This document shows, piece by piece, positions 16,317-60,344 of a stretch of DNA of 64,000 bases. The position numbers were made by a program, and so were the translations under genes. Position 1 is the first letter of the stretch. The number at the start of each line of letters is the position of its first letter. Origin of the DNA: Clostridiales bacterium. GTDB lineage: Bacteria; Bacillota; Clostridia; Christensenellales; CAG-314. The notes below the pieces were generated by a model. That model did not search any database. It was not told the origin of the DNA and saw only the letters and a program-made list of their open reading frames with translations. The stretch is taken from positions 66,857 through 130,856 of the forward strand of contig JAFLVJ010000001.1 in assembly GCA_022508375.1 (NCBI GenBank), given 5' to 3'.

Positions 16317-16354
16317 AAAAAAAAGTGCGCACTCGCTTGTTACGAGTGTGCACT
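16317..16354 (-). terminator. valS terminator
   Basis: On the minus strand, AGUGCACACUCG-loop-CGAGUGCGCACU is followed by UUUUUUUU. A second hairpin lies at 16394-16420. Confidence 0.75.
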
Positions 16355-16429
16355 TGTTTGTATCGGTTTATACTATAAAAGATATAAATCATTAAAACCG
16401 AAACGAAGTCGTTTCGGGCGACCCGAGAC

Positions 16430-37251: not shown

Positions 37252-37283
37252 AAAAAAAAACGCCCGAGTATAACTCAGGCGTT
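37252..37283 (-). terminator. strong rho-independent terminator closing the phage-like operon
   Basis: On the minus strand, AACGCCUGAG-UUAUA-CUCGGGCGUU is followed by UUUUUUUUU. Confidence 0.8.
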
Positions 37284-37554
37284 AAACAAAGTTGCAGCCA
37301 ACCAATTAACTGCGCGTTTGGTCGGCTGTTTCAAAATATGTCCGCAAAGTTCGGGCGTGTACCGAACATTTGCGCCCTTGCGAGAGGGGGTGCAGAGGGG
37401 AGATATGCGACTTCTCCCCCTGCAGTCACAAAGATGAAGCTTGTGCATCACAAGCTTCCTTGTTAGTCCGACCGCAGGGATGCACAAGCACACGTCAGTG
37501 CAGGGTTGCAAGGCGCAAGCCGCCGTCAACCAAGTCCCTGCGCGTTTGGTCGGA
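37284..37554 (-). ncRNA. candidate structured 3' UTR or ncRNA between the last phage-like gene and the terminator
   Basis: No plausible ORF. At least four strong hairpins, at 37344-37373, 37391-37424, 37436-37458 and 37466-37480/37535-37555. Two 32-nt direct repeats (27/32 identical) each carry GCGTTTGGTCGG. The strand is inferred only from the operon context. Confidence 0.35.
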
Positions 37555-38484
37555 CTAGGGTATTAAGGTTGTGTTTACCCAATCCACAAACGCGCTGTAG
37601 TACGTTCCGAGGTGCACCACCATGAAGGAGTCGAAGGACAGTATAATCTTGCCTTCCTCACGTGTAAGCGGAAAAAATACATCCTGACTGACGGCATATT
37701 TTTCCTTTTCTATCATGCGACGGTAACCAGTTTCGCCGTATTCGAGATACAGCTTGCTGTTGTTGTAAGCGCGGTTGTACGCCGCCCTTCGCGCCGCTTC
37801 GTAGGCTTTGGCGCGGGAAGCCTGATACTTGGCTTCCTTTTCGTCCAATCCCGTGTTGTACTTTTCGATACTGCGTGCAAGCGCTTCCTCGTCCTGTTTG
37901 AGCTTTTGATATTTTTGTATAATACGCGCCGCTTTTTCCTCCTCGAGGTCGGCGCACCTTTCTTGGTAGATTTGTTCGGCGTCCTGTTGCTCCTTATCTA
38001 CAAGCGCCATCTTGTCGGTCCACTCCTTGTTTTTTCGGTTTGTTTTCTTTTCCATCTTGGTTACCAACTGCTCCTCGTACTTGGTGGCAACTGTGGAAAA
38101 TATCAACCCATTATTTATCAAACGACGGTGTAACGCCTCGTATTCCTTGTAGTATTCGTCCAAAACAGCCTGCGCGCTCTTATCCTTGCTAAGCTGCATT
38201 TGAGCAAGCTTGTTTGCTAAGCTTTTGACAGTTGTATTGTAACTTTTGTCCAAGGCAGACTGCTTGGAAATGATGCTTGCAGCTACTTGCTCTTCCGCCA
38301 TTTGCATCAATTCTTCTTCCGTCTTGGGCTCGTATATCAGTTTAGTAAGATAAAGACTGTCCGGCATGTCCAGCTTCGGCTCGACAAATTCCAACGAGTA
38401 CTTTTCGTCAATGTAAAGTATGCGCGTTTTCAGTCCGTTGTAGATGTGCGCTAGCTCTAATAGCCTTTCGTTTGTTACTGCCAT
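37555..38484 (-). CDS. 309-aa coiled-coil protein of the phage-like cluster, function unknown
   Basis: Long K/E/Q/A-rich heptad-like region, and the last gene of the operon. Confidence 0.6.
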   Translation of the reverse strand: MAVTNERLLELAHIYNGLKTRILYIDEKYSLEFVEPKLDMPDSLYLTKLIYEPKTEEELMQMAEEQVAASIISKQSALDKSYNTTVKSLANKLAQMQLSKDKSAQAVLDEYYKEYEALHRRLINNGLIFSTVATKYEEQLVTKMEKKTNRKNKEWTDKMALVDKEQQDAEQIYQERCADLEEEKAARIIQKYQKLKQDEEALARSIEKYNTGLDEKEAKYQASRAKAYEAARRAAYNRAYNNSKLYLEYGETGYRRMIEKEKYAVSQDVFFPLTREEGKIILSFDSFMVVHLGTYYSAFVDWVNTTLIP

Positions 38485-38486
38485 AT

Positions 38487-39734
38487 CTACACCTCATACG
38501 TTCGCGCGGACAGTTCCATACTATCCAGCTGCATGTTGCCTTGCGATTGCACGCTAACGGTAAACTGCCGTCCCGCTCCCGTAATGGGCAACCGCTGAGT
38601 AGTGTTTTTACCGCACACTTTGTAACGACGGTTTTCCGTCCCGTTGTCAATCCACACTTCCAAGTCGCTCTTGGTGCGGACGATAAGTCTATCCAGATAC
38701 TTGACGTCGGAGGTTTTAAAGTCCACCGTCTTGCAGTAACAGCTGACGGTAGGTTCATCCGTATTTACGTATAGCATGTTACCGATGACCGCATAAATCT
38801 TACCATCGGTCGAACAGATATTTTCCACCTTGGCGTCCAATACCGCTACTATCCTGTTGCTATCCACGTCCAACTCAAGCAGAATATCGTTGACTAATTG
38901 ATCGCCGTCCTTCCTCTTGCAGGCGATGTAATACTTGCCGTTGTGAACGCACGCCACCGCTCCGTCGAAACTTACGAAGTCGTTTAACTGGGTGAAAATA
39001 GCAGACAGGGTGTTATTTTTTACCTCGTACAATCCGTTGGTGGAGGCAAATATTGCGCGTTTGCCTAGCTTTGCTACGCTAAACGTTTGTACTTTACCCA
39101 CGTTGTAACCAAATGGTTCGAACTTCATGTTGTAATCCAACCCGTCCGCCTTTAGCGTGTAGCAGGTATCGCCGAGAATATACAGCTTGTCAAGTGCAAC
39201 TAACGCGTCCAGTTCGGAGTGGGCTGTTATATTGACCGTTTCATCCCACCGTCTGATATCGCCGGCTTTGGTCATGTACAGTTGCTTTCCGTTAATTCCG
39301 AATATGCGGTCGCCGTACACTTCGAGACAGGTAAAGTATGCCGAAGTCATTTTATTCGACTCTACCCCATCTACAGTGCTGTATGTTCCCGTCGAACAGG
39401 AAAACACAAGCGCGTCCTGATAGATAACGTGGCTTATCGTCTTGTATGTATTGTTTGCCAAGCGGTATGCGTAGTCGTCGTCCAAATAGCCGAATACTCC
39501 GTGTTCGGCTAGCAGGTACAGCTTGTCACCATAGAAACGAAACGCTTGATCCACTTTAAAGTAAAAGGGCATCTTTGTCAATGCAAAAGTTGACGAGAGC
39601 CCCGTTCCGTTCAAAGCGACGTTTCGCTGATTTACAAATTCGCCCTTCGTCTTGTTGAAGTTCAAATCCAACGTTATCTTGCGTTGTTTGGCGGTTATGG
39701 GGCGAATTTTTTTGCAAAAGAACACTACAACCAC
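38487..39734 (-). CDS. 415-aa beta-rich protein of the phage-like cluster (possible adaptor/nozzle-like structural protein); start uncertain
   Basis: Repetitive beta-strand pattern (…LYILGD…, …IFASTNGLYEV…, …KIYAVIGNMLYV…). The GTG start overlaps the upstream gene and has no spaced RBS. Confidence 0.5.
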   Translation of the reverse strand: MVVVFFCKKIRPITAKQRKITLDLNFNKTKGEFVNQRNVALNGTGLSSTFALTKMPFYFKVDQAFRFYGDKLYLLAEHGVFGYLDDDYAYRLANNTYKTISHVIYQDALVFSCSTGTYSTVDGVESNKMTSAYFTCLEVYGDRIFGINGKQLYMTKAGDIRRWDETVNITAHSELDALVALDKLYILGDTCYTLKADGLDYNMKFEPFGYNVGKVQTFSVAKLGKRAIFASTNGLYEVKNNTLSAIFTQLNDFVSFDGAVACVHNGKYYIACKRKDGDQLVNDILLELDVDSNRIVAVLDAKVENICSTDGKIYAVIGNMLYVNTDEPTVSCYCKTVDFKTSDVKYLDRLIVRTKSDLEVWIDNGTENRRYKVCGKNTTQRLPITGAGRQFTVSVQSQGNMQLDSMELSARTYEV

Positions 39735-40273
39735 CCCCTTGCGGGCATGCGCATAGAGGATGTCTTGACGCCTGCCACCTGCAATGCGTCCTTAAAACGC
39801 GTATCCCAAGCTTTGGCAAGCTCCCAGTCGCCCGTCACAGCGTAGAACTCGCGAACAATGCCATACACAAACGTCCGCTCGGTAATTCGCGGTGAAGGCA
39901 TATGTACTTGATCGCCCCACCCAAGCACGTCGGGCAAGCGCGCGTAACACAGGTTGTATTTGCCGTCCGATTGCACATACAGTCCGCCGTCTCCGTAGCG
40001 ATAATTTACATCGCAGCCTTGCTCATCCAACAGGGATATCACTCGGCACATATGCAGCGAAGCGGTATCGGCAAAGCCGTCGATAACTTCCACCACCGTC
40101 TTGCGCAATGACGTTGCATAATCGCGATACAGCTCCTCGTAAACGAAGTTGCAACTGTTAAGCAATATTTTCACCACGTTGTCGTCAGGCAACACCTCGC
40201 TATCGAAGTATTCCTGTGGCAATCCAAGGTTGAGTATCTCGGCAGAGGTTTTTATTATTTCGTTCGTTTTCAT
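39725..40273 (-). CDS. 182-aa phage-like structural or accessory protein, function unknown
   Basis: AGGAGA RBS, located in the position of head-completion genes. Confidence 0.55.
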   Translation of the reverse strand: MKTNEIIKTSAEILNLGLPQEYFDSEVLPDDNVVKILLNSCNFVYEELYRDYATSLRKTVVEVIDGFADTASLHMCRVISLLDEQGCDVNYRYGDGGLYVQSDGKYNLCYARLPDVLGWGDQVHMPSPRITERTFVYGIVREFYAVTGDWELAKAWDTRFKDALQVAGVKTSSMRMPARGWL

Positions 40274-40314
40274 TGTGTCTCCTAGTTGTTCAAATTAAAT
40301 CGAACATTATCAAA

Positions 40315-40572
40315 TTAATGTTGCGACAATTTGGCGTTATTCTTTTCGATATCTTCAAATACTTGATTAGCATTCCCCACGCTTGTGTAGCGTGCATACT
40401 CCACCGTTCGCACGTCCAATTCGTCATACGGAACGACAAATTCCAACGCGCTTGTGACGGCGTTTCTCACTTCGTATCGGCATTTATTCGTGTTGTAATA
40501 CAGCCGATATCCGTCGTTGACGGAACGCAACCTTTGAGCGATATCGTATAGGTCTTGTGTGATTTCTATCAA
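40315..40572 (-). CDS. 85-aa protein of the phage-like cluster, function unknown
   Basis: TTG start 7 nt after AGGAGA. Confidence 0.5.
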   Translation of the reverse strand: MIEITQDLYDIAQRLRSVNDGYRLYYNTNKCRYEVRNAVTSALEFVVPYDELDVRTVEYARYTSVGNANQVFEDIEKNNAKLSQH

Positions 40573-40746
40573 TTGTGTATCTCCTAAATCTCACGTGCCA
40601 CAGGCACATATCGCTACTCACGTGAGCGAGTACAAATCATCCTCTTGTAAAGTTTTTTCAACCCAAATGTGCAATTACTGCACGGTGATGACGTACTCGC
40701 CACGAGTAACTTTGTTTAGCGATATACTTTCTATGTTACTTTTTAT

Positions 40747-40869
40747 TTGCGGCGGCAGATGCGAAGTAGGCGAGGCGCACGAGGCTTGATTGACGGGAGT
40801 GTACTAGGCGTACACGACCGAAAGCAAACGCAATTGCAACAAAGCATACCGACGCATACCCCGCCTCAA
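40747..40869 (+). repeat. family A structured intergenic repeat, copy A4, inside the phage-like operon
   Basis: Near-identical to A2 (3677-3799). Closing stem TTGCGGCGG/CCGCCTCAA. It abuts the stop of the capsid gene. Confidence 0.8.
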
Positions 40870-40870
40870 A

Positions 40871-42037
40871 TTACGCTTCGGTAATTCCCGAAATCATCGC
40901 TTGTCCGATAGGACGGTCGCAAATAAGGTCGGCGTACTTGACAAGGGTTGCCGTATATACGGGTTTACCCGTTACCTGCTTGATGATACGTCCGTCGTCA
41001 CCTTCCAGCCAGCGCCAATCGCACAGTTGATGAAGCTTGAAGTCGCTGCTGTTAAGTATGTACATGGTTCCAGCAGGTGCAAAGCGGTCGCTTACAACGG
41101 GAATACCGTTGTAGGAAATTGCCTTGTAACCGCCTTGAAGATTCATCACGTCGATGTTGGTGCGGTTGGTGATGAGGTAATCCTGATAGGCTCGTTTTAC
41201 ACCGCCGCTGCACACAATGAAGTCGGCAGTGGAACCGGCAACTTCTTCGAGGGTGTCGATTGCCTTTTGAATGGTTACGTCCGTCAATTTGGACGAAGTT
41301 GTTTTGTAGGGTGTAAGCCATTTGTTGGAGGCGCGAGTGATTCCATACAGCGTGTCGCTATCGCCGAAAATTGCACCCAAGCCTGTAAGTTCCTTGTTGT
41401 AGCTGCCCTGAACAGTCAGGAAATCGCCTGATGTAACAGTTCCCGAACCGATGGAAGCTCCGCTGAGGGTGATTGTTTTGCTTGTGCGATCAACGTCAAC
41501 AATACGGCGGGCAGATACAACAGGAGTCTTGCCACTGTTTCCGATTACATCGACCACCATTCCTTCGATGACGTTGTTTACGGCGTCAACGGTAAGCTTG
41601 TTTCCGCTAGCTGCGGTTACCTTGCACAGCATTCCGCTACCGTCGCCGAACAGCATCCTGCCGAAGTTGAACTTGGAAGCGCGCAAAAGTCCTTCCATTT
41701 CCGCCTCGAGAAGATTAACAAACGCACCGCTGTTGTTTTCGCTTGCGCGTATTGCCTTATCGGAAATTTCGATTGTACCGTACAGGTTTTTCAACGTCAG
41801 CACGAATTGCGCGTAGTTGTTACCGGCGGAAGACGGAAGTTCGCCTTCCTCGGTGCCTGCGCCGATACCGCCGTTTATGCCGAAGGGCGCAAGTTTGCGA
41901 ATTTCTTTACCCCATACGTCGCTTGACGTTTGTTCGAAACGGGCGAGCAGGGGATTGACCGCAGTGTTAAGTTGATCGGCGACAACGCCGAGATACAGGG
42001 TTTTAAGCGCGTTGTCGGCGCTAGTAAGTGTTACCAT
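40871..42037 (-). CDS. major capsid protein (HK97-fold type with an inserted domain)
   Basis: 388 aa directly after the scaffold gene, with an AAAGGAGAA RBS. Its N-terminal and C-terminal segments are typical of phage capsid families (from memory). Confidence 0.75.
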   Translation of the reverse strand: MVTLTSADNALKTLYLGVVADQLNTAVNPLLARFEQTSSDVWGKEIRKLAPFGINGGIGAGTEEGELPSSAGNNYAQFVLTLKNLYGTIEISDKAIRASENNSGAFVNLLEAEMEGLLRASKFNFGRMLFGDGSGMLCKVTAASGNKLTVDAVNNVIEGMVVDVIGNSGKTPVVSARRIVDVDRTSKTITLSGASIGSGTVTSGDFLTVQGSYNKELTGLGAIFGDSDTLYGITRASNKWLTPYKTTSSKLTDVTIQKAIDTLEEVAGSTADFIVCSGGVKRAYQDYLITNRTNIDVMNLQGGYKAISYNGIPVVSDRFAPAGTMYILNSSDFKLHQLCDWRWLEGDDGRIIKQVTGKPVYTATLVKYADLICDRPIGQAMISGITEA

Positions 42038-42049
42038 AGTTTTTCTCCT

Positions 42050-42415
42050 TTAATTGAAATATTTTTTTGCCAATTCCGACGCTTCACGCAGTGTCTTGGG
42101 GCGGTTTGGCAACGCCATAGACACGTTTCCGCCACCCGTCATGACTTTAGGAGGCGTTGCTGAATTTGTATTTACGCTTTGGCAGTCCGCATTGCTGTCG
42201 GCGCTTTGCGGAGCGGGGACTGTAGCCACGTCAACCGCGGTTGACTGCGTATTATTTACTTGCGGTGATGGTTGCCCACTTGTACCGCTGTCTTGTGTTT
42301 TTTGTTCAGCCTGTTTCAATGCCGAAAGCTCCTGACACTTTTGTGTAAAGCTCTTTTCCAGTTCGGTGTAGCCTTTAAGCAGTTCTTCGGCGCTATTGAA
42401 TTTACCGTATTCCAT
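42050..42415 (-). CDS. scaffolding-like protein
   Basis: 121 aa with helical ends and a Q/S/T/P-rich centre, between portal and capsid. The ATG lies 1 nt after the portal stop and has an AAGGAGAAA RBS. Confidence 0.55.
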   Translation of the reverse strand: MEYGKFNSAEELLKGYTELEKSFTQKCQELSALKQAEQKTQDSGTSGQPSPQVNNTQSTAVDVATVPAPQSADSNADCQSVNTNSATPPKVMTGGGNVSMALPNRPKTLREASELAKKYFN

Positions 42416-42416
42416 G

Positions 42417-44327
42417 TTAATAATTACTTTCTCCTTGTTTATTTTTGATGGAAGCACAGTCGATGAGTGCGCTTTCCTTATGTTTGGCGATATGGGCTAA
42501 AATTTTTGCACGATACTCCACGTCAACGTCGTCGATATCAGCTGCAATTATGTGTCGGGTATGCTCCTCGATGTGCAGGGCGTGGTCGTCCACAGGCAGT
42601 ACCTCGGCGTGGTCGATATCCACGTTTTCGCGTTGTGCGCGTGCGATGTGCATTTGCGCAATATCCTGAGCGCTATCCCAGTTGCCGAATCCCATCATGG
42701 ATAGCACCTTGGCTTTGGTGCTTTGCGACAGCCGCCCTTCGCTATCCGTCAAGATACCCGCGTTGAGCAAATCGAACAGCATACTTCTGCGCGTTGCGGG
42801 ACTGTCTGTCAGTTCGTTTTCCGTTTCGAACACCACGTCGTCGCTGCCGATATCGCTTGAGGTAAAGTAAAACAGTTCCGCGCTGTTTTGACCGTCGGCG
42901 TAGCGCATGAGCTTAGCGTTACTAACGAACTGCTTGTACAGCCTCAAGATATACTGCGATATCCGCTTGATGCACCTCTTGATACTATCTACACTGCCCG
43001 CCAAACGAATATCGTCCTGCTCGGCAATGAGCTGCAACGCAACGCCACTTGTAACGGTGGTCGGGGTGCTGCTTTTGCGGGCGAACTCCGACACACCGGA
43101 AATATCGTTGAACTCGCTTAGCAAGTGCTCCTCTTCCTTGGCGAAGTCGCTCGGCACGTCGCCGCTGTCCATGAGCTGCGGCTTGACGGCGCCCTGACGG
43201 TAAACGAGAATTTTGCCGGGGGACAGACCTTCTTCTTCGAGGTTGTCGGTATCCACCGAGCCGTCCTCGACGGTCAACACTCCCATTGCCAGACGGTTGA
43301 GGAACTCATGCTTGCGATTCTTCACCGCGTTGTAGGCGCGCTGTATGGGAATGACCCGTTCCACCATGCTTGTCCCCCAAAAACATCCTGCTTGATCCAA
43401 GGAAACTTGCCTGATAAACGGATAGGCATATTCGCCGTTTTCACCCAGCATGTACGGCAATTCGCCGTAGTACAGCAGCTCGTTTCCGGCAACTATTTCC
43501 AGCTTGCCGTGTGGATGTGCAGACGTTGGCTTGGTATAGCGTTCGATTACCAGTACTTGGTCGTTTTTCGTTTCCTGCACAATGGACGGAACCACGGTAT
43601 TGTATCCCAGTCCGCCCACGCTTGCCGCGCCGTCAATGGCAAATACCTTGACGGTATCACCTGCAATATCTACACCCCATGTGTCTTTTACCTCGCTTGC
43701 ACTATATACCTTGGCATGAATGACTGATGTACAATCCTCCACACTTGCGGTGACGTTGCTGTCGGGATATATCTCGAATGGGGAACAAACGGAAACCGTT
43801 GCCTCATCGCAAGCGGCGTCCCAACTTACCTTGTAAAAGGACGTTCCGCACACTTCGCTCCACGCCGTTGCACGGGTGATGATTTCGTCAAGGTGCATTT
43901 TTTCCCGCGCAGAACTTAATATCTTGGTGGCAAGCTTGGCGCTGTTCACGTCGGCGTCACTGCCGGAAAAAGGTCTCGCCATTGGACGGGGACGTACGCG
44001 GTTGAGGCGAGACATGCGCGTCTCCACTATTGTTGCGATGTGGTTGAATACCTGCTTTTCCTGCCAAAAGTAATACTTGTCCTCCTGCTCGATACTGCCA
44101 CGCGGGGACACTGCACAGTACTGGTTGCCCATTACGAAGTTCATATTCAGTTGCCAGTTGAGCTCGTAAGGACGGCGCATTTTTTGCCGCGCGGCGAAGT
44201 CCGATTTGACGCTGTTAACTACTTCTTCGGCGAATTCGGGCGTTACGGGTTTTGCCTGTTGCTGCTGCGTTTCGGGCGAAGAATTCATGTTTTCGTGGTA
44301 TGGGGTGGGATTATTGCTTGTCGTCAT
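42417..44327 (-). CDS. phage portal protein
   Basis: 636 aa, upstream of scaffold and capsid and downstream of terminase. Its size and conserved N-terminal region (NWQLNMNFVMGNQY) are portal-like. Confidence 0.75.
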   Translation of the reverse strand: MTTSNNPTPYHENMNSSPETQQQQAKPVTPEFAEEVVNSVKSDFAARQKMRRPYELNWQLNMNFVMGNQYCAVSPRGSIEQEDKYYFWQEKQVFNHIATIVETRMSRLNRVRPRPMARPFSGSDADVNSAKLATKILSSAREKMHLDEIITRATAWSEVCGTSFYKVSWDAACDEATVSVCSPFEIYPDSNVTASVEDCTSVIHAKVYSASEVKDTWGVDIAGDTVKVFAIDGAASVGGLGYNTVVPSIVQETKNDQVLVIERYTKPTSAHPHGKLEIVAGNELLYYGELPYMLGENGEYAYPFIRQVSLDQAGCFWGTSMVERVIPIQRAYNAVKNRKHEFLNRLAMGVLTVEDGSVDTDNLEEEGLSPGKILVYRQGAVKPQLMDSGDVPSDFAKEEEHLLSEFNDISGVSEFARKSSTPTTVTSGVALQLIAEQDDIRLAGSVDSIKRCIKRISQYILRLYKQFVSNAKLMRYADGQNSAELFYFTSSDIGSDDVVFETENELTDSPATRRSMLFDLLNAGILTDSEGRLSQSTKAKVLSMMGFGNWDSAQDIAQMHIARAQRENVDIDHAEVLPVDDHALHIEEHTRHIIAADIDDVDVEYRAKILAHIAKHKESALIDCASIKNKQGESNY

Positions 44328-44544
44328 AATTTTGCTCCTTGTTTTTCAGTTCCATTTTTTTCTTGATTGTGTTTTGCGGACTCTTCGGAACGCGGGGCGC
44401 AAGCCCTTCGCCGACTATATCGCTTAGGCACTTTGAGCACAGATAACATCTGCCCGCTCTGCCCTTGATGGCAAATTGATACTCCGCGTCGTTTTTGCAA
44501 TCTCTTACGTCGCACTTGGTTTTGTTTGTTATAGGTTGTAGCAT
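44311..44544 (-). CDS. 77-aa zinc-ribbon-like protein
   Basis: CDVRDC...CYLCSKC cysteine pairs and an AAAGGAGAA RBS. It overlaps the portal start by 17 nt. Confidence 0.55.
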   Translation of the reverse strand: MLQPITNKTKCDVRDCKNDAEYQFAIKGRAGRCYLCSKCLSDIVGEGLAPRVPKSPQNTIKKKMELKNKEQNYDDKQ

Positions 44545-44561
44545 TGTGTTCTCCTTTTACG

Positions 44562-44873
44562 TTATTCTTCGTCGTCCGATTGTTCGGTTGACGGTTGCTT
44601 GGTTTCTTCATAGACGTTGAGCAAGCGGATCAATCTGAGCTTTTCCACTTGCAGTTGTTCGTCCGTCATCTTGGTGACGTCGGTGTTGTCGTCCGTTAGG
44701 GTGATAAGCGCCTTCAAGGCGTTAACGTCGGGGTGCGCGCGCTTGGTTACAATCTTGCTCTTGACAAGCTTTTTTTCACCGTCCACCACTACGTACTCGT
44801 CCGTCTTTTCGCGGTAGGCGTACCCCTTGGCTTTTTTGAGTAGTATCTTGGTTATCAGTTGCTTCGTGTCCAT
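44562..44873 (-). CDS. 103-aa protein, possibly terminase small-subunit-like
   Basis: KRAHPDVNALKALITL resembles the conserved PD..A segment of some TerS proteins, and the tail is acidic. The assignment is tentative. Confidence 0.4.
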   Translation of the reverse strand: MDTKQLITKILLKKAKGYAYREKTDEYVVVDGEKKLVKSKIVTKRAHPDVNALKALITLTDDNTDVTKMTDEQLQVEKLRLIRLLNVYEETKQPSTEQSDDEE

Positions 44874-44880
44874 GTTGATT

Positions 44881-46290
44881 TCATCTTCTTAATCGCTTCA
44901 TCAATTTTTCCTTATCCTTTTGTACCCAGGTCTTTTCAGGTTTTGCTTCCTCCTTATCCGTTAGCGAACACACGTAGTAACGCAGTTCGTCCATGGCGTG
45001 ATCGTCTCGCTTTATCGGGGCGTCGCCGTTCCCCCAAAAGTATCCTTTTATTTCCCGAATCATGTTTAAGCAATTACTGAATATGTACAGCTTAGGGGGA
45101 CCGCTTAGCGGTTTGAGCATAGCCTTGACCTTGTTGATTCCGAAAAATATACTTTTGTTGACCCGCGTGTTTACCGTGATTCCCTGCTCGTTGAACAGTT
45201 CGGCAACACTCTTGATTCCGTTTAGCGTGCGCTGATTTGCCGCGCTGTCCATAAGCGCCGAGATACGACCGAACTTGTCCCTTTTCCAGTTGAGTCGCTG
45301 GCTTATTTCCTTAATCCTTGCGGCGTGATACACCACGTCACGCCCCGCCTCGTAGTGCTCCGCAACCACATACACGTTTCCGTCGTAGTCGCGCATATAC
45401 CAGTGACAGGACAATGGATTGTTAAGCCCCGGGTCGATACTTATGCCGTCCTGCCAGTCCGTCGGTAATTCGCGTGGCTCAATGACGTTGAGCTCGCTAA
45501 ACTCGGGATACACCAGTCCGTAACTGGCGGTGAACCGTCCGTAACGGCGACTTTCCAACATTTCGGCGGATATGCTTTCGCTCATCAGCTCGACTTCGCT
45601 TTGGTTGAGGTAAGGGTTGTCGCTCCACTCCATAAATTCGTACCACACTTCCTTAGAATTGTGGCTGTTGAGATATATTTCGTCGTACACCCAGCTGAGT
45701 CCTTTGAGCGGAGTCATGGTTCCGAATACGTGCCCTTGTCTGTCCAGTACGCGCATACGGCACTCCTCGTATATGTCAAGAGGCGGTTCCTCGTCGAACC
45801 ACACGAAGTCAAGACTCGTACCTTGAAACTTTTCCCGTCCCGCCTCGCAGCTTTTGAAGGCAATCTTGGAAGTCCCGCCCAAGACGTTATCGACAATTAT
45901 GTAGTCGATGACGCCGTACTCGGGACTGGCCTTGGAGCCGTTCGACATCACGATTTCCTTTATCCAGCTTTTGTCAAGATAGTACAAAATTTTTTGCTGA
46001 GCCACGTCGCGTTGCACCTGCTGGGATAGCGACACCACCCAACAACTGACGTTTGCGAGGTTTTGTCGGTATGGGTGAATACCGCGCGCAAGCCACACCG
46101 TTTCCACTGCTCCGCACTCCGTCTTGCCACTGCGATTTCCGCCGAATACCCAACGGTTGCGTTTGAGGCACTTGTGAAAAGCCATCTGCTTGACATGCAC
46201 CTTGCCCTTGTTGTAGCGCGCAAGCGGACTTTCCAACCGCCTGCGCTCTTCCTGTTCGATTTGTTTTATTCTGGTAAGAATTTCTTTCAT
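44881..46290 (-). CDS. terminase large subunit
   Basis: Walker A GGNRSGKTECG, Walker B-like LDFVWFDEEP and a C-terminal nuclease-like region. The start is placed at MKEILTRIK. The track ORF extends to 46386. Confidence 0.85.
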   Translation of the reverse strand: MKEILTRIKQIEQEERRRLESPLARYNKGKVHVKQMAFHKCLKRNRWVFGGNRSGKTECGAVETVWLARGIHPYRQNLANVSCWVVSLSQQVQRDVAQQKILYYLDKSWIKEIVMSNGSKASPEYGVIDYIIVDNVLGGTSKIAFKSCEAGREKFQGTSLDFVWFDEEPPLDIYEECRMRVLDRQGHVFGTMTPLKGLSWVYDEIYLNSHNSKEVWYEFMEWSDNPYLNQSEVELMSESISAEMLESRRYGRFTASYGLVYPEFSELNVIEPRELPTDWQDGISIDPGLNNPLSCHWYMRDYDGNVYVVAEHYEAGRDVVYHAARIKEISQRLNWKRDKFGRISALMDSAANQRTLNGIKSVAELFNEQGITVNTRVNKSIFFGINKVKAMLKPLSGPPKLYIFSNCLNMIREIKGYFWGNGDAPIKRDDHAMDELRYYVCSLTDKEEAKPEKTWVQKDKEKLMKRLRR

Positions 46291-46421
46291 AAAATTTTTG
46301 AAGTATTTTGTCCTAGTCAATACTTGTCTAATACAGACACAACTCGGCAAAATTTCTTTCTGCCGCGGTTTTACACTTAAATACACTCACACCATGAGCC
46401 GGCCCGAGCGGCAAGGAGCGG

Positions 46422-47162
46422 ATGATGTTTAAAAAAGTTGTTATGATTATTGCAATACTGCTGTCACTGGTAATATCCTACGGTAAGGTCGCTTACGCCG
46501 AAGGCGAAACTTGGGCGCGCGTCATCAAGGACGGGGTATATCTGTACACTACGGCGGATACCAATCAACAGTTGTTTCTGTTGGAAAAGTCCTACTACGT
46601 CAACGTCGTTTACGAAACGGAGGACATGTATCAGGTGGCAGTAATGCCACAGGGTTCGACGGAATTTGTTCAGGTGATAGGCTGGGTTATCAAGGGCGAA
46701 GTGACAATTAGTTCCGCTCCGCTCGAACCGGTATATCCTACCGAAATGCTCACCGTCACCGCCGACTCGGTGGAACTGAAACTGTCACCCACACCAAGCG
46801 CTCAGGCCAGTTGTGCCGTGCTTAATCTACAACGGGTGTACTACTACGGTAAAATAAACAGTTACGGTAAAGTATGGTACTATGTCCGATACGCGGGGCG
46901 GTTCGGGTACCTCGACGCAAGCTGCGTTAGCCAACCGAATATCAGTTTGCACCCGACCCCACTTCCAAGCACACCCGCAAGCACCGTGCCGCAAACGCCG
47001 CCCTCATCGGATGACGTAACCGACCCACCTAAGAGCAGCTCGCCCACTTCGGAAATACTGCTCATCGCATTCGTTGTGTTGCTTGCTGTTGGACTTACAT
47101 TGGCGCTATTCCTCCCTGGTAACGTCAAGAAAAAAAGCAACGTGTTCGAGCAAGATATTTAA
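46422..47162 (+). CDS. secreted SH3b-like repeat protein with a P/T/S linker and a C-terminal TM anchor
   Basis: Signal peptide, two SH3-like modules (ARVIKDGVYLY..., VWYYVRYAGRFGYLDASCV), a PTPLPSTPAST linker and a TM segment. It lies on the opposite strand inside the phage-like region. Confidence 0.65.
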   Translation: MMFKKVVMIIAILLSLVISYGKVAYAEGETWARVIKDGVYLYTTADTNQQLFLLEKSYYVNVVYETEDMYQVAVMPQGSTEFVQVIGWVIKGEVTISSAPLEPVYPTEMLTVTADSVELKLSPTPSAQASCAVLNLQRVYYYGKINSYGKVWYYVRYAGRFGYLDASCVSQPNISLHPTPLPSTPASTVPQTPPSSDDVTDPPKSSSPTSEILLIAFVVLLAVGLTLALFLPGNVKKKSNVFEQDI

Positions 47163-47175
47163 CGGTGAAGCAACC

Positions 47176-47607
47176 TCACTCACCGCAGATGAAATTGTAG
47201 TGCCCGTAGTTGGCGCTAAACCACTGCTCGTCGCAGCCGATGGATTCAAGCGCACGCTTAAACGCCTCACGGGCGTAGCGAATTTTGCGATAAACCGTGG
47301 ACATTGAAACCTTGTATTTTATCGCAAGGTCTTTTTTGTCACAGTATTTAAAGTACACCGTCACAAGCAACGCGCGGTAGGTCTTGGGAACAATCAACAG
47401 CGCCTTTTTGACGGCGGTACAAAAAGCGTTACACTCGTCGATTTTTTCGGAGATGTCTGCAATAGCCTGAATCTGCCCCATTGTTCCGTCGCGCCAGTAC
47501 GTCGTATCGTAGGATCGCATTGCGATAAGCTCCAGCTCCTTTGTGAGAATATTTGCGGTTTTTTTCATGCGAATAGCGTTGTTCAATATAAGCAGTTCGT
47601 AGTTCAC
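47176..47607 (-). CDS. ArpU/RinA-like late transcriptional activator (sigma-70 region-4-like HTH)
   Basis: 143 aa with the C-terminal HTH LAIKYKVSMSTVYRKIRYAREAFKRAL. GTG start after AAGGAGGTGA. It occupies the usual position upstream of packaging genes. Confidence 0.55.
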   Translation of the reverse strand: MNYELLILNNAIRMKKTANILTKELELIAMRSYDTTYWRDGTMGQIQAIADISEKIDECNAFCTAVKKALLIVPKTYRALLVTVYFKYCDKKDLAIKYKVSMSTVYRKIRYAREAFKRALESIGCDEQWFSANYGHYNFICGE

Positions 47608-47788
47608 TTGCTCACCTCCTTTTTTTTCCGACCAAACGCCCTTATCTAATTAAAGTCGCATACCACAGATCTCCCGTAAGGACGACAAGTTCGGCGCAGG
47701 TCCGTACTTGTCGAACGTTAGTTTTAACATATAGGGTTGGTTGTGCGATAGTTTTGGTCGTTTTCGAACTTTTGTTCTATTCGCTCTC

Positions 47789-47797
47789 ATTATAGCA
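47789..47797 (-). promoter_or_regulatory. extended -10 promoter element for the regulator gene
   Basis: TGCTATAAT on the minus strand, with no good -35. It predicts a structured 5' UTR of about 175 nt. Confidence 0.45.
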
Positions 47798-48091: not shown

Positions 48092-49891
48092 ATGAAAAAA
48101 CTACTATGTATCTCAATAATATTACTGTTTATCTTTGTCGCCATTATTCCTGCGGTGGTTTTTGCCGCAAGCAGCACGGCGGAAGATATCGTTTATTTCC
48201 TCAACCCTACCGCTATCACTGCCATGGGCGACAGTCTGTTTATTGCAGATAGGATTGAGGAAAACAAAAGCGTTATCATGCGCTACGACGTAACGGAATC
48301 CGAGCCGATACTATCGGAAATATTCGAAGTGGATGGTTGCATAACCAACCTTGCTCAAAAGGATAACGGACTGTACGCTGTGTTTACGGACAAGATTGTC
48401 GAATACTCGACAAGTTTCAACGCACTTAACAGTTGGAGCATAGCAAACCCCATCGACGTTGTATATGGCACATACGGTTCGGACAAGACGGAATACGTCC
48501 TCAAGTCGGACGGTCTGCTTCGTCCGGGTACAGGCGGCAACACTATCAACTTCACTAACGGAATATCCTGCATTGCCATTGGCGACAGCTTGATGTACGC
48601 CTACAAGCAAGGCAACAGCACTTATTACGGCGAGTTCGATGGCAAAAATACCGTTTACCCCTCCAACTACAGTATAAGCAACTCCAACTCCAACGCTCAA
48701 TTGACAAGTCTTGCGCTAAAGGGAATGTTTATATGGAATGACAAGACGGCGTTGTTCACCGCTGATACTGTTGGCTACATTGTAGTTGGCGAAGTGTCTT
48801 GCGAATACGCAAGTCTGCTTGAGTACGACGAGGACTGTGATATCATTGACGCAACTGCGCAGGGTAGCAACCTGTACCTGCTAAACGACAACAACCAAAT
48901 AGAAGTGTTCGTGCAAAACGAACTGGGCAATTTCGACAAAACTGCTACCATCGGTAACGACGAATTGAACCAAAAAGAGCCAACCGTTTCGGAATTTAAG
49001 TCATTTACGCTTGTAAACAGCCTTGGCTATCCCACCAATATCGTGTTCAAAACAACGGGCGGAAACAGCATCGATAACATCATTACCGACGCTACGGAGT
49101 ACATTGTTATAGGATACGACGGCGAACAAAACAGCAATTTCTACTACGTACTTATAGGCGACAAATTCGGTTGGGTCAAGAAAAGCGACAACACCACCGA
49201 CGTCAACAATGACGAAGGACTCGCAGTGATTGACACATCGGTTAGCGGAAACGGCTTCAGCTACAAGGCGAAGTTTGTATCGTTAAACGCCGTTTATGTT
49301 TCGACGTTACCGCGACTTGCTTACTATGACAACGAAAGTTACCGCGTAACCTACCAGCAGTCATCCAACAATAAACTCGAAGTATCCGTTTTGCAAAGAT
49401 TTGACGAAGGTGAAATAGCCTGGTACTACGTGAGCTTCCTCTACGACGGGCAAACCTGCTACGGTTTTGTTCGCGACAAGGACATCAAGATGTATATAAC
49501 CTTCGGCAACGACAGCGACGTTGAGGTAATCGGCAACCGCAAGATAAATACACCGCTATTTTCAAGCGTTAAAGTGTACAACAACGGAAACCCCGCCACA
49601 ATGACGGAGGAAAACTACGCATACGATACTGAAGGAAAACAACTTAAACTATCCGCAGGTACGCGCGTTACACTCATAAGCGTTGACGACAACGGCGTGG
49701 CATTCATTCAAATAAAGAAAAGCAACTACTACGGATACGTTTACGCCGACAATCTTATTGAGACAGGCGCCATCACCACCAACGCTACCGTTGGCTTGAT
49801 ACTGCTTGCCGTGGCAATTGCGCTTGTTATTACACTTACGATCGTTTACCTTAGACGTATGAAACGTCGCAGAGAGGTCATCGGCGAATAA
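48092..49891 (+). CDS. 599-aa secreted beta-propeller-like plus SH3b-like protein with a C-terminal TM anchor
   Basis: Signal peptide, repetitive beta-rich N-terminal half, SH3-like modules (FYYVLIGDKFGWVKK, WYYVSFLYDGQTCYGFV, GYVYADNL) and a C-terminal TM plus RRMKRRRE. Confidence 0.65.
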   Translation: MKKLLCISIILLFIFVAIIPAVVFAASSTAEDIVYFLNPTAITAMGDSLFIADRIEENKSVIMRYDVTESEPILSEIFEVDGCITNLAQKDNGLYAVFTDKIVEYSTSFNALNSWSIANPIDVVYGTYGSDKTEYVLKSDGLLRPGTGGNTINFTNGISCIAIGDSLMYAYKQGNSTYYGEFDGKNTVYPSNYSISNSNSNAQLTSLALKGMFIWNDKTALFTADTVGYIVVGEVSCEYASLLEYDEDCDIIDATAQGSNLYLLNDNNQIEVFVQNELGNFDKTATIGNDELNQKEPTVSEFKSFTLVNSLGYPTNIVFKTTGGNSIDNIITDATEYIVIGYDGEQNSNFYYVLIGDKFGWVKKSDNTTDVNNDEGLAVIDTSVSGNGFSYKAKFVSLNAVYVSTLPRLAYYDNESYRVTYQQSSNNKLEVSVLQRFDEGEIAWYYVSFLYDGQTCYGFVRDKDIKMYITFGNDSDVEVIGNRKINTPLFSSVKVYNNGNPATMTEENYAYDTEGKQLKLSAGTRVTLISVDDNGVAFIQIKKSNYYGYVYADNLIETGAITTNATVGLILLAVAIALVITLTIVYLRRMKRRREVIGE

Positions 49892-50092: not shown

Positions 50093-50172
50093 TTTGTTTA
50101 TGTTATGTTGTACACTTTAACGCAGTATTGCGCCGCTATATAATACGCAAATTGAATATTTCTCAATTACCC

Positions 50173-50299
50173 GATGACGGGGCTAGAAACAAGCAAGACA
50201 AGGCAAAGGAGCACTTTCAAGGGGAGTGTACTTAGGCGTACACGACCCGAAGAAAAGCGCACTTTAACGCAGTATTGCGCCGTTTATAGCCCCGTCATC
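50173..50299 (+). repeat. family A structured intergenic repeat, copy A5
   Basis: Perfect 13-bp closing stem GATGACGGGGCTA/TAGCCCCGTCATC. The core is TAGAAACAAGCAAGACAAGGCAAAGG...GTGTAC-TTAGGC-GTACAC. It overlaps the last 12 codons of the next gene. Confidence 0.75.
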
Positions 50300-51688: not shown

Positions 51689-51927
51689 ATCAATTACCTA
51701 CTCCAAACAGTAAATTGACAACAAACGAAGATGATTTTACAAGATGAGCGTATTGTAACACACAAGACAAAGCGCTCCCTGACAACTACTGTCATTTATT
51801 GTCTGTTTATAGTGTATTTTATTTGTAAAACAGTAAAAATATGTCACAAAAAAAGGCTCCCCTTACATAAAGAGAAACCTTTTTAACCATTAAATTGTGA
51901 CCGATATTAAACAACCGCAGCAAAGTA

Positions 51928-52009
51928 GGCGAGTATGTTCCGAAAAAGTGACCCGTCAGGGGAACGTAGCGCAAGCGCAGTGCGGAATCTGTTTCGGAAT
52001 ATACGAGCC
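51928..52009 (-). repeat. family B palindromic repeat, copy B5
   Basis: Reverse complement GGCTCGTATATTCCGAAACAGATTCCGCACTGCGCTTGCGCTACGTTCCCCTGACGGGTCACTTTTTCGGAACATACTCGCC. Confidence 0.8.
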
Positions 52010-52014
52010 TAAGC

Positions 52015-55334: not shown

Positions 55335-55341
55335 TGCGATA

Positions 55342-55920
55342 CTACACCTCCTTGTCAAGTTGCTTTTTTGCCTTGTTTTTGCAAGGGATTACAGTGTCGA
55401 TAAGACCGTACTCCAGCGCTTCCTGCGCCGTCATACTTTTGTCTCGGTCGGTATCGATATTGATTTGGCGAATACTCTTGCCGGTATTTTCCGACAAAAT
55501 CGTGTTTAGACGCTTGCGCATGCGCTCAATGTGGTTGGCGGCGATAATTATATCGCTGGCTTGACCTTGCGCACCACCCAAAGGCTGGTGAATCAGTATG
55601 TCGCAGTTTTCGGTTGCTCTGCGGTAGCCGCGGCTTCCTGCGGACAACAAAAAAGCACCCATACTGGCTGCCCTTCCAATTCCAACTGTGACGATACGCG
55701 CTTTGATAAAGTTCATCGTATCGTATATCGCGAGACCTGCACTTACACTACCACCGGGCGAATTGATTTGAATGGTAATTTCTTCTGCGCCGTTGTCATC
55801 GAGATATTGTAATTGGGAAATGACCAATTCAGCCATTACGTCGTCAATAACACCGAAAATATTTACGGTATTACGCTTCAAGCTGTAATCCAACGAAAAA
55901 TCTTCTTTGCACTTTATCAT
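55342..55920 (-). CDS. clpP: ClpP-family serine protease paralog with a divergent N-terminus
   Basis: INSPGGSVSAGLAIYDTM, AASMGAFLL (Ser), IHQPLGGAQGQASD (His) and DTDRD (Asp) are all present. The canonical N-terminal axial-loop sequence is replaced. The ATG at 55920 lies 8 nt after GGTGGTGA. Confidence 0.85.
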   Translation of the reverse strand: MIKCKEDFSLDYSLKRNTVNIFGVIDDVMAELVISQLQYLDDNGAEEITIQINSPGGSVSAGLAIYDTMNFIKARIVTVGIGRAASMGAFLLSAGSRGYRRATENCDILIHQPLGGAQGQASDIIIAANHIERMRKRLNTILSENTGKSIRQINIDTDRDKSMTAQEALEYGLIDTVIPCKNKAKKQLDKEV

Positions 55921-56026
55921 TTTGATTCTCACCACCTTTAAAAAATATTGTTTAGTACACGAAAAACGCGTTTTCGCACCTTGTGCGTTTCGCCCTAAAT
56001 TGCGCGTTTTTACGCCTTACATCTAT

Positions 56027-56055
56027 ATTATAATGATGTTATATAACTTTGTCAA
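56027..56055 (-). promoter_or_regulatory. consensus sigma-A promoter of the clpP-like operon
   Basis: On the minus strand, TTGACA (56055-56050), a 17-nt spacer, then TATAAT (56032-56027). A ~100-nt 5' UTR with hairpins and three AAACGC repeats follows. Confidence 0.7.
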
Positions 56056-56150
56056 ACATTTTATATTACATTTTTAAAATATTTTCAAAATATTTATATT
56101 GCATTTTCAACACATATAAATTCGCAATTATTCACAAAACTCCCCTAACA

Positions 56151-60269: not shown

Positions 60270-60344
60270 TCCTCGTTAGCTCAGCGGCAGAGCATCCGGC
60301 TGTTAACCGGAGGGTCGTTGGTTCAAACCCAACACGGGGAGCCA
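60270..60344 (+). tRNA. tRNA-Asn (anticodon GTT), CCA encoded
   Basis: Manual cloverleaf: acceptor TCCTCGT/ACGGGGA, D-arm TAGCTCAGCGGCAGAGCA, anticodon stem TCCGG/CCGGA with loop CTGTTAA, T-arm GTTGG-TTCAAAC-CCAAC, discriminator G plus CCA. Confidence 0.9.

Follow-up and report, generated by a model that had tools for sequence, protein, structure and literature searches.

The roughly 10-kb operon on the minus strand at 37.3-47.6 kb of the window (i.e., the whole 64-kb stretch of DNA analysed here) is probably a domesticated module of podovirus origin, fixed in the chromosome, which would build a small DNA-filled particle of the gene transfer agent (GTA) type and which is known from the genes of MAGs alone. 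This reading rests on the conservation of synteny and position, on intact ORFs, on strong purifying selection and on divergence in step with host genes, and it bears out the domesticated system that an initial annotation of this DNA had listed among its options. A minimal podovirus-like particle had been listed separately, on condition that the 415-aa protein is a nozzle; structure models now indicate exactly this, together with an adaptor, and since the GTA-like and the podovirus-like readings are both supported, they hold together. Every gene named at the outset was recovered, all of them on the minus strand (Table 1), and the base composition is host-like (GC 0.484 in the cluster and 0.478 in the host).

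Table 1. Features of the cluster and its surroundings, with window coordinates and the basis of each assignment.
Feature	Position	Strand	Basis
Sigma-70 region-4-like / ArpU-type regulator, 143 aa	47176..47607	-	profile matches
Membrane-anchored protein, 246 aa	46422..47162	+	translation features
Non-coding motif ATTTTGCCGAGTTGTGTC	46336..46353	-	TerL-upstream alignment, 12 species
Large terminase (TerL), 469 aa	44881..46290	-	Terminase_6N/6C, phrog_2
TerS-like protein, 103 aa	44562..44873	-	weak phrog_309 match
Four-Cys zinc-ribbon protein, basic tail, 77 aa	44311..44544	-	conserved motif
P22/SU10-type portal, 636 aa	42417..44327	-	PF16510 P22_portal, SU10_portal, phrog_156
Scaffold candidate, 135 aa	42050..42457	-	position and composition
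Major capsid protein (MCP), 388 aa	40871..42037	-	NF033394, phrog_14242
Conserved protein, 85 aa	40315..40572	-	conservation only
Predicted head-to-tail adaptor, 182 aa	39725..40273	-	AF2 model and Foldseek
Predicted tail nozzle / hub with beta-propeller, 415 aa	38487..39734	-	AF2 model and Foldseek
Helical Glu/Lys-rich protein, 309 aa, last operon gene	37555..38484	-	PF25588 DUF7934
Intrinsic terminator closing the operon	37259..37283	-	11-bp stem and T9
Neighbouring surface protein, 599 aa	48092..49891	+	translation features

Related loci, all of them MAG sequences, were drawn from a collection with one genome per species, in which the capsid protein has 399 matches. In all sufficiently long loci the order regulator, 246-aa protein, TerL, 103-aa protein, portal, 135-aa protein, MCP, 85-aa protein, adaptor, nozzle and 309-aa protein is collinear. 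The cluster is often flanked by SSB/deacetylase genes on one side and rnj on the other (rnj lies downstream in 27 of 49 loci and m322 in 40, SSB upstream in 21 of 43), although distant lineages have other flanking genes, e.g., hrcA-grpE-dnaK downstream in locus L047, which counts against the GTA-like reading. Distances between capsid, TerL and portal sequences correlate with those between rnj sequences (r 0.65-0.80, Mantel p 0.001) and, in unsaturated pairs, dS of the cluster genes (0.27-0.66) equals that of the flanking host genes (0.28-0.57). The view that the genes are functional rather than decaying is upheld by core ORFs intact in 96-100% of loci and by dN/dS of 0.03-0.2 (0.15-0.44, the highest of the cluster, for the 135-aa protein), compared with 0.06-0.07 for rnj; the comparison of synteny and dN/dS across relatives, proposed as a check, thus gave collinear order and purifying selection. 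Loci labelled Christensenellaceae or Christensenella (L057, L058, L061, L063, L064 and L069) also carry the cluster. Judged from these comparisons of genes, it is vertically inherited, under strong purifying selection, in a large group of uncultured gut Clostridia.

The packaging and head genes are assigned with different degrees of firmness. TerL matches Terminase_6N (E 1.5e-10), Terminase_6C (E 1.1e-6) and phrog_2 (E 4e-31), is intact in 63/63 loci (dN/dS 0.07-0.08), and starts at ATG 46290 rather than at GTG 46386, because the N-terminus MKEIL..IE.EE.RR is conserved. The gene claimed to encode a TerS-like protein exists, being found in 66/66 loci (dN/dS 0.06-0.17), whilst the one match that points to the TerS role, and makes it a putative assignment, is a weak one to the small-terminase family phrog_309 (E 0.003); at 103 aa the protein is too short for the usual N-terminal DNA-binding domain. 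The conserved zinc-ribbon gene keeps its motif KCDV.DCKN...KG..G.CFLC..C...PKSP.N.IKK in about 30 loci, and its product has no match in family profile searches. A 95-aa ORF overlapping it is not conserved and was rejected as the gene. The portal (P22_portal E 1.2e-22, SU10_portal E 2.6e-6, phrog_156 E 1e-34) is full length in 66/67 loci, with dN/dS of 0.04-0.05. Between the portal and capsid genes, the 135-aa protein, with helical N- and C-termini and a low-complexity middle, is a scaffold candidate by this position and composition only, and profile searches of Pfam, PHROG and NCBIfam gave it no match. The capsid protein matches NF033394 capsid_maj_Podo (E 7.8e-89), phrog_14242 (E 8e-66) and, weakly, SU10_MCP; it is 62-94% identical over 80 loci, more conserved than rnj, with dN/dS of 0.03-0.14. 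The 85-aa protein occurs in 57/73 loci (dN/dS 0.07) and has no family match in profile searches.

The cluster had been described as head-only and without a tail, and this has to be given up. The AF2 model of the 182-aa protein (pLDDT 87.6) has podovirus adaptors as its top Foldseek matches, i.e., those of Pa223 (9nwi_A, E 4.6e-7), KHP30, SU10 (7z47_B) and N4 (9lc0_H) and T7 gp11; two of 29 orthologs weakly match the Pfam family SU10_adaptor, and the protein is full length in 68/71 loci. The model of the 415-aa protein (pLDDT 84.5, pTM 0.84) matches the Pa223 tail (9nwi_Y, E 1.9e-17, TMq 0.75) and further VP1, GP4, P22 gp10 (8eap_D, E 1e-12), Sf6, T7 gp12 and SU10. By their predicted folds, then, the first is a podovirus head-to-tail adaptor and the second a podovirus tail nozzle of the P22 gp10 / T7 gp12 type. 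Among the core genes, that of the nozzle evolves fastest (19-51% identity); it is full length in 67/69 loci. The 309-aa protein belongs to PF25588 DUF7934 (E 3.9e-16), is full length in 52/56 loci (dN/dS 0.12-0.20) and finds nothing in the PDB, in PHROGs or in the phage collection, where the nozzle has no match either. For the 309-aa protein, roles as a needle or plug, as an internal component or as an abundant part of the virion are all possible.

The regulator matches phrog_36 (transcriptional regulator, E 1.2e-5) and the sigma-factor family phrog_1740, its residues 53-125 weakly match ECF-sigma NCBIfam models, and there is a weak PDB match to SigW sigma-4; it is full length in all 52 loci covering its position (dN/dS 0.06). 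When the TerL upstream regions of 12 species are aligned, a nearly invariant block, ATTTTGCCGAGTTGTGTC, stands some 45 nt ahead of the TerL start. The window contains no second match to it, even if 3 mismatches are tolerated, and its 12-mer core is present in 14 fetched loci, in nearly all of them directly upstream of TerL. The block is a candidate for the promoter or operator that controls the structural operon. At the other end, termination after the 309-aa gene, as first proposed, agrees with a terminator rated strong (six G-C pairs in the stem), past which lies a strong promoter of the following gene (37180-37152).

If the domesticated GTA-like reading is correct, the sigma-like regulator would switch on the structural operon via the conserved ATTTTGCCGAGTT element that precedes TerL, and would probably do so in only part of the cell population. 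A procapsid would be built on the portal from the capsid protein and the 135-aa scaffold; TerL and the truncated TerS-like protein, perhaps with the zinc-ribbon protein, would package host DNA in headfuls and largely irrespective of its sequence, and adaptor and nozzle would seal the portal. Exit by lysis and attachment would depend on genes beyond the window, much as FpGTA has a second operon for them; that neither the cluster nor the window contains a tail fibre, receptor-binding protein, holin or endolysin gene counts against the reading. Relatives that branch deeper still have additional tail-protein genes and a holin gene at the end of the cluster, and the lineage of the window therefore carries a reduced core. 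By one GTA criterion, which depends on capsid size, the locus that encodes a particle must not fit into it.

The closest known system is FpGTA I of Faecalibacterium prausnitzii, most likely related in design as judged by architecture and annotation; its description (PMC12946183, 2026) overtakes the earlier statement that such a gene set was undescribed. FpGTA forms particles of about 40 nm with about 9 kb of random host DNA (Borodovich et al., Nat Commun 2026, PMC12946183). By homology search, the same authors found FpGTA in no genus other than Faecalibacterium. For Christensenellaceae MAGs they report fragments of 4.1 and 6.3 kb packaged in a GTA-like manner, with no genes named, and for FpGTA a separate operon II with fibre, RBP, holin and endolysin (PMC12946183). 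FpGTA I, too, lies in the chromosome of a gut member of the Clostridia, where it spans about 10.5 kb with some ten ORFs. Its order corresponds to that of the cluster here: a TerS-like protein lacking the DNA-binding domain comes first, then TerL, the portal, a small protein, the capsid protein, a small ORF, adaptor and nozzle, with further proteins at the end, including a helical one annotated as ‘TolA’. Its nozzle was assigned from PDB 8eap, also a top Foldseek match of the 415-aa model; apart from a podovirus stub, it neither shows nor encodes a tail, and it is near-ubiquitous in its host clade. The hosts differ, however (Ruminococcaceae for FpGTA, Christensenellales-like MAGs here), as do the capsids (FpGTA's was named as N4-gp56 family, whereas here capsid_maj_Podo is matched and N4-gp56 is not) and the product encoded between portal and capsid (a Prp-annotated protein in FpGTA, the unannotated 135-aa protein here). 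The cluster also has, unlike FpGTA, an adjacent sigma-like regulator and an opposite-strand membrane-protein gene inside, and no counterpart of the fibre/RBP/holin/endolysin operon was found in the window.

GTAs of the RcGTA type in Alphaproteobacteria are phage-derived head and packaging clusters, chromosomally fixed, vertically inherited over an order or class and under purifying selection, without integration or replication genes, with a truncated TerS and with accessory genes at other loci. The cluster shares the fixed, vertical character, the purifying selection, the absence of integration and replication genes and, putatively, the truncated TerS, but RcGTA resembles siphoviruses in having an HK97-type head, prohead protease, tape measure and long tail, whereas podovirus-like parts and no protease are seen here, and its regulation by CtrA/GafA has no counterpart at this locus. 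The RcGTA neck is a marginal Foldseek match of the adaptor model (6te8, E 0.04). Short-tailed phages of the P22/SU10/Pa223 type resemble the cluster in the P22_portal, SU10_portal and weak SU10_MCP and SU10_adaptor matches and in the adaptor and nozzle folds, but their needle, fibre/tailspike, ejection, lysis, replication and lysogeny genes were not found here, and the phage collection holds no close relative (capsid protein at most 32% identical).

The particle could instead have been selected for something other than gene transfer, with packaging kept and delivery not the point, which we regard as rather unlikely. PBSX, for instance, has been argued to be a killing or lysis-linked particle; further possibilities are the export of DNA and a role against related phages, as a decoy or as a defence. 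The evidence for domestication fits such a particle equally well, fibre and receptor-binding genes are absent from the cluster and the window whilst present in deeper relatives, and DNA delivery is unproven even for FpGTA according to Borodovich et al. (PMC12946183). However, adaptor and nozzle form a DNA exit channel conserved under purifying selection, and fibre and lysis genes may sit elsewhere, as in FpGTA II. Moreover, we know of no killing mechanism for a podovirus stub.

That the cluster is an ordinary or decaying prophage, i.e., the remnant of a temperate podovirus with its other modules nearby or recently lost, is very improbable. Its capsid family does have distant relatives in true phages (capsids of Arthrobacter and Microbacterium phages, 27-32% identical) as well as 3047 clusters of relatives, and related contigs are flagged as viral in IMG/VR. 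Against this, both flanks consist of housekeeping genes for tens of kb, as does the rest of the window (only the left flank had been called ordinary host DNA before), the ORFs show no sign of decay, and conservation of the capsid protein exceeds that of RNase J. Profile searches of the whole window found no integrase, repressor, replication, fibre, holin or endolysin gene, in agreement with what had been reported from first reading, nor was a receptor-binding protein gene found there; a search for flanking att-like repeats likewise found none, so that the proposed look for contiguous lysis or integrase genes or att boundaries turned up neither in these 64 kb. In IMG/VR, 57 loci of this kind are entered as viral, an observation that counts against the GTA-like reading.

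The known capsid-forming satellites, cf-PICIs, are mobile, carry integrase, regulatory and replication genes and HK97-type heads with protease and connectors, and need helper tails. A satellite or mobile island of this kind, with its own heads and the tails of a helper phage, was another of the original options and would suit a small chromosomal element, compact and rich in head genes, that encodes capsid, portal and terminase itself, includes a late-regulator-like gene and lacks the genes of a long tail, but it is scarcely credible given that none of those cf-PICI traits was found, that profile searches of the cluster genes gave no AlpA, primase or prohead protease, that att repeats are lacking, that site and gene order are constant across many species with host-like dS, and that the cluster's own adaptor and nozzle would block a borrowed tail.

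Two further genes at the locus encode proteins that, as read from their translations, have a signal peptide and a C-terminal TM helix or anchor. The 246-aa protein, whose gene lies inside the cluster on the opposite strand, combines these with a beta-rich domain and a Pro/Ser/Thr linker; it has no Pfam, PHROG or NCBIfam match and a non-significant SH3b-type PDB hint, and it occurs in 51/55 loci with position and orientation unchanged (dN/dS 0.08). The gene of the 599-aa surface protein, for which profile searches gave no family match, is divergent from that of the regulator, and shows conserved synteny in 31 loci (22-45% identity, dN/dS 0.10).

The minus-strand operon quite probably encodes a domesticated, podovirus-like particle of the gene transfer agent (GTA) type. 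It combines phage-derived structural and packaging genes with no gene for integration, lysogeny or replication in the cluster or the window, and related loci show vertical inheritance and purifying selection. The main alternative, a domesticated particle whose function is not transfer, seems to us unlikely. The gene list of the initial annotation was right, every listed gene having been located on the minus strand, and the operon ends as claimed, at a strong intrinsic terminator.

Features of the cluster and of its surroundings, in window coordinates
Feature	Position	Strand	Remarks
Cluster, ~10.3 kb	37259-47607	-	from ~47.6 kb down to the strong intrinsic terminator
Sigma-70 region-4-like regulator	47176-47607	-	phrog_36 E 1.2e-5; weak ECF-sigma matches
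246-aa membrane-anchored protein	46422-47162	+	antisense, between regulator and TerL
Large terminase (TerL)	44881-46290	-	Terminase_6N/6C, phrog_2 E 4e-31; start ATG 46290, set by conserved N-terminus
TerS-like protein, 103 aa	44562-44873	-	phrog_309 E 0.003 only
Zinc ribbon, 77 aa, four Cys	44311-44544	-	motif kept in ~30 related loci
Portal, P22/SU10 type	42417-44327	-	P22_portal E 1e-22
Scaffold candidate, 135 aa	42050-42457	-	position only
Major capsid protein	40871-42037	-	NF033394 capsid_maj_Podo E 7.8e-89; phrog_14242 E 8e-66
Four further ORFs, 85 / 182 / 415 / 309 aa	37555-40572	-	
Strong intrinsic terminator	37283-37259	-	end of cluster
599-aa surface protein	48092-49891	+	adjoins cluster
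ClpP-like protein	55342-55935	-	divergent; below NCBIfam trusted cut-offs
549-aa protein	53709-55358	-	no family match
VirD4-like ATPase	52015-53712	-	CD1115-family coupling protein

Profile searches against Pfam, PHROGs, NCBIfam and PDB gave nothing decisive for the unknown proteins (the 415-aa protein had weak beta-propeller and phrog_511 matches), and structure prediction was therefore needed. Two structures, those of the 415-aa and 182-aa proteins, were predicted from ortholog alignments and then searched with Foldseek. The top matches of the 415-aa model (pLDDT 84.5, pTM 0.84) are podovirus tail nozzles, including that of Pa223 (9nwi_Y, E 2e-17, TMq 0.75) and, within the top four, P22 gp10 (8eap_D, E 1e-12, TMq 0.64), with further nozzle matches in VP1, GP4, Sf6, T7 gp12 and SU10; by its modelled fold, this protein is a predicted podovirus tail nozzle. 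The 182-aa model (pLDDT 87.6) matches the podovirus head-to-tail adaptors of Pa223, KHP30, SU10, N4 and T7 (gp11), and two orthologs weakly match Pfam SU10_adaptor, so that a head-to-tail adaptor is what the model predicts. Since portal, adaptor and nozzle are all encoded, the predicted particle would have a minimal short tail. The earlier description of the cluster as head-only, without tail genes, was thus mistaken, whilst the podovirus-like particle envisaged there in case the 415-aa protein were a nozzle is borne out by the model and its Foldseek matches. Of the unknowns earmarked for structural comparison, the 182-aa and 415-aa proteins could be placed and the 309-aa protein could not: helical and rich in Glu and Lys, it belongs to DUF7934 (a Pfam-type family assignment) and has no other match in the Pfam, PHROG, NCBIfam and PDB profile searches. 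The 85-aa protein, the zinc-ribbon protein and the scaffold candidate likewise drew no family match. Neither the DUF7934 protein nor the nozzle matched any of 50,697 phage records by tblastn, and the cluster has no recognisable genes for fibres, a needle, ejection proteins or lysis. A 95-aa ORF overlapping the zinc-ribbon gene was dropped, being unconserved among related loci.

The cluster is very widely conserved. Over 6000 homologs of its capsid protein occur in a 90%-clustered protein collection (the best 120 all at least 78% identical), and there are 399 matches in a one-genome-per-species collection, the best 80 of which are 62-94% identical and come without exception from uncultured gut Clostridia, labelled, among others, Christensenellaceae, 'Subdoligranulum sp. 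CAG:314', Ca. Fimimonas and Ca. Heteroclostridium. In all loci long enough, labelled by tblastn and HMMs, there is a single gene order: regulator, 246-aa protein on the opposite strand, TerL, TerS-like protein, zinc ribbon, portal, scaffold candidate, capsid, 85-aa protein, adaptor, nozzle and DUF7934 protein. The neighbourhood is often shared too, with rnj (the RNase J gene) downstream in 27 of 49 loci, a neighbouring membrane-protein gene downstream in 40, and the SSB gene upstream in 21 of 43. ORFs are full-length for TerL in 63/63 loci, portal in 66/67, capsid in 70/71, adaptor in 68/71, nozzle in 67/69 and regulator in 52/52, and sequence conservation in these loci is higher for the capsid protein than for RNase J. 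In the two species pairs where dS was not saturated, dN/dS was 0.03-0.14 for the capsid, 0.04-0.05 for the portal, 0.07-0.08 for TerL, 0.16-0.23 for the adaptor, 0.19 for the nozzle and 0.12-0.20 for the DUF7934 protein, next to 0.06-0.07 for the host gene rnj, and dS is the same in cluster genes (0.27-0.66) as in flanking host genes (0.28-0.57). Pairwise distances follow those of rnj (r 0.65 for capsid, 0.74 for TerL, 0.80 for portal; Mantel p 0.001). Synteny, intact ORFs, low dN/dS, host-like dS and co-divergence with rnj argue for an element that is domesticated and vertically inherited, and a prophage, remnant or satellite would not leave this signature. The initial annotation had taken the genes for functional rather than decaying, proposed comparing synteny and dN/dS across relatives, and offered a domesticated GTA-like element as one reading; these comparisons, with one gene order and purifying selection, speak for it on both counts.

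The surroundings are those of a chromosome. Downstream, on the same strand, lie two multi-pass membrane proteins, served by a separate promoter, and then rnj, an O-methyltransferase, a U32 peptidase and dapB, in keeping with the host genes already noticed on the left flank; upstream come the divergently transcribed 599-aa surface-anchored protein, an SSB with two OB folds and a polysaccharide deacetylase. These flanking host genes recur at relatives' loci, the remainder of the window is housekeeping (GroEL, ValRS, Lgt, DAP pathway genes, NadE and others), and GC and GC3 of the cluster are host-like. A temperate prophage is effectively excluded by these recurrent flanks and by the missing contiguous lysogeny, replication, full tail and lysis modules: integrase, repressor and replication genes were detected neither in the cluster nor in the 64-kb window, and fibre, RBP, holin and endolysin genes were not found within it, so that the absence of integration, replication and lysis genes first noticed in the sequence stands. 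Effectively excluded as well is the satellite suggested earlier, since cf-PICIs have an integrase/replication module, att sites, strain-variable presence and tails borrowed from a helper, whereas the cluster has its own adaptor and nozzle, no integrase, regulatory or replication module, no credible att-like repeats at its flanks and the same chromosomal site in many species.

Two surface proteins accompany the cluster in position. The 246-aa protein inside it and the 599-aa protein beside it each have a signal peptide and a C-terminal TM anchor, and keep their positions in dozens of species; neither has a family match (SH3b-like hints are non-significant), and a receptor, immunity or release role is possible. 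The non-coding motif ATTTTGCCGAGTTRTGTC (ATTTTGCCGAGTTrTGTC) precedes TerL, nearly invariant, in 11 of the 12 species aligned, occurs once in the window and is almost confined to this position in other loci, which makes it a good candidate for a promoter or operator used by the adjacent sigma-like protein.

Deeper-branching relatives, with capsids ~63-72% identical, have extra genes between nozzle and DUF7934 protein, in some a single one for a ~340-395-aa protein and in others a pair for ~800-aa and ~670-aa proteins. These genes evolve rapidly (as at 13754-18188, 13580-17560 and 13570-18914 of the related loci L059, L065 and L067, respectively), one of the ~800-aa proteins has matches in Butyrivibrio and Bacillus phages that are annotated as tail proteins, and the last gene of the cluster in L065 and L067 is a holin (Phage_holin_1 E 4.5e-5, BhlA E 1.4e-13). 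Homologs of the extra tail and holin genes were not found in the window, whose lineage therefore retains the core only; its genes for fibre and lysis functions have either been lost or lie elsewhere.

A full-text search returned a sole directly relevant paper, that of Borodovich et al. (Nat Commun 2026, PMC12946183) on the GTA of Faecalibacterium prausnitzii (FpGTA). FpGTA I is a 10.5-kb operon of ten ORFs, with a TerS devoid of a DNA-binding domain, TerL, portal, small protein, capsid, adaptor, nozzle (identified through PDB 8eap) and other virion proteins; a second, unlinked operon of 5.5 kb, 125 kb away, encodes baseplate, fibre, RBP, holin and endolysin, and the particles, ~40 nm and tail-less in look, contain ~9 kb of random host DNA (PMC12946183). 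The window cluster has the same operon architecture as RCH50852-RCH50844 with their assigned roles, sharing TerL, portal, small protein, capsid, small ORF, adaptor, nozzle and further virion proteins, and its nozzle resembles P22 gp10 (8eap) in predicted structure. The two differ in that the FpGTA capsid (RCH50849.1) is named N4-gp56, whereas the window capsid is capsid_maj_Podo and matches no N4-gp56 model of NCBIfam at E <= 0.01, and in that nothing like the second operon, with its fibre/RBP, holin and endolysin, lies within the 64-kb window. FpGTA homologs are reported in Faecalibacterium only (PMC12946183); the capsid representatives and their clusters are all named 'Clostridia/Clostridiales bacterium', with no Faecalibacterium, and the cluster may be orthologous to FpGTA or independently domesticated. 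According to the same paper, several other gut Clostridia also package host DNA in a GTA-like manner; for Christensenellaceae MAGs the read lengths peak at 4.1 and 6.3 kb, and the genes behind this packaging are left unnamed (PMC12946183). The MAGs in which such packaging was seen include 928_concoct.122 (HGM11616) and scaffold 928T_NODE_10 (QANA01 sp019420265). Some loci labelled Christensenellaceae in the one-genome-per-species collection carry the cluster, a concrete candidate for these genes.

The cluster itself is new and undescribed, of a kind known only since 2026; the initial claim of an undescribed gene set holds for the locus and no longer for its architecture, which is that of FpGTA I. 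To our knowledge, GTAs are known in detail from a handful of lineages only, and FpGTA, reported in 2026 from a gut commensal, is the first podovirus-like one. Tentatively, we would suggest an ancient, order-wide podovirus domestication in Christensenellales-like gut Clostridia, separate from that of FpGTA, which could explain the 4-6 kb Christensenellaceae packaging, the fibre and holin having been shed and the particle being completed in trans by unlinked loci or fibreless. If active, the cluster would make capsid-mediated gene exchange inherent to a whole order of gut bacteria that are heritable and health-associated. It would also add a second podovirus-type GTA, perhaps independent in origin, to comparisons of phage domestication. 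The interest of the locus lies in this possible link to packaging, in the gene-loss series seen among relatives, from fibre-and-holin-bearing to reduced clusters, and in its conservation in many uncultured gut species, among them the lineage 'Subdoligranulum sp. CAG:314', which is very prevalent. The capsid sequence of this lineage (locus L047) recurs exactly on at least 1000 contigs of public assemblies, so the cluster must be very common among gut samples that have been sequenced.

There is a practical side as well, viral databases counting such chromosomal loci as viruses. In IMG/VR, 57 'viral' contigs (L081-L137) contain the capsid gene, in most cases within the same chromosomal cluster and in some with SSB/deacetylase or rnj flanks, and these entries are probably domesticated host loci, not viruses. 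In a few (L098, L129 and L133) the genes that follow the capsid gene differ, and these contigs may come from true phages. Organism labels call for similar caution. The cluster is found on contigs labelled 'Corallococcus sp.' (L021-L023), one of which (L022) also has the Firmicutes-type neighbours rnj and two-OB SSB, and, with rnj, in Ca. Fimimonas (L017, L019 and L037), which NCBI taxonomy places under Myxococcaceae; the labels of these MAGs look wrong. The order is probably Christensenellales in the GTDB taxonomy, NCBI organism labels having proved unreliable.

Some minor features of the window deserve mention. The 270 nt of minus-strand non-coding DNA between the DUF7934 stop and the terminator (37284-37554) have no Rfam match and contain a 37-nt imperfect direct repeat (81%; 37289-37325 and 37517-37553) and a hairpin with a perfect 10-bp stem (37436-37458); in the closest relative, L001, this spacer is 178 bp long. 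A perfect 23-nt direct repeat, CACTTTAACGCAGTATTGCGCCG, at 50113-50135 and 50260-50282 (spaced 147 nt), takes in the SSB gene's 3' end and the intergenic stretch next to the terminator of the 599-aa gene. The minus-strand block of three genes at 51750-56100 (ClpP-like, 549-aa and VirD4-like proteins) is an insertion of ~4 kb, missing from L001, where a 2-hydroxyacid dehydrogenase directly adjoins the deacetylase gene; the block may represent part of an ICE or a module of the defence type, and its ClpP, at 55.3 kb, was for this location rejected as a prohead protease. Finally, the plus-strand ORF at 60638-62761, a 707-aa glutamine-dependent NAD synthetase (CN_hydrolase and NAD_synthase), begins with an HTH_3 / Cro-C1-type domain, which may reflect a real fusion or an over-extended ORF, and just upstream of it lies a tRNA-Asn (60270-60344), the only hit of the Rfam scan.
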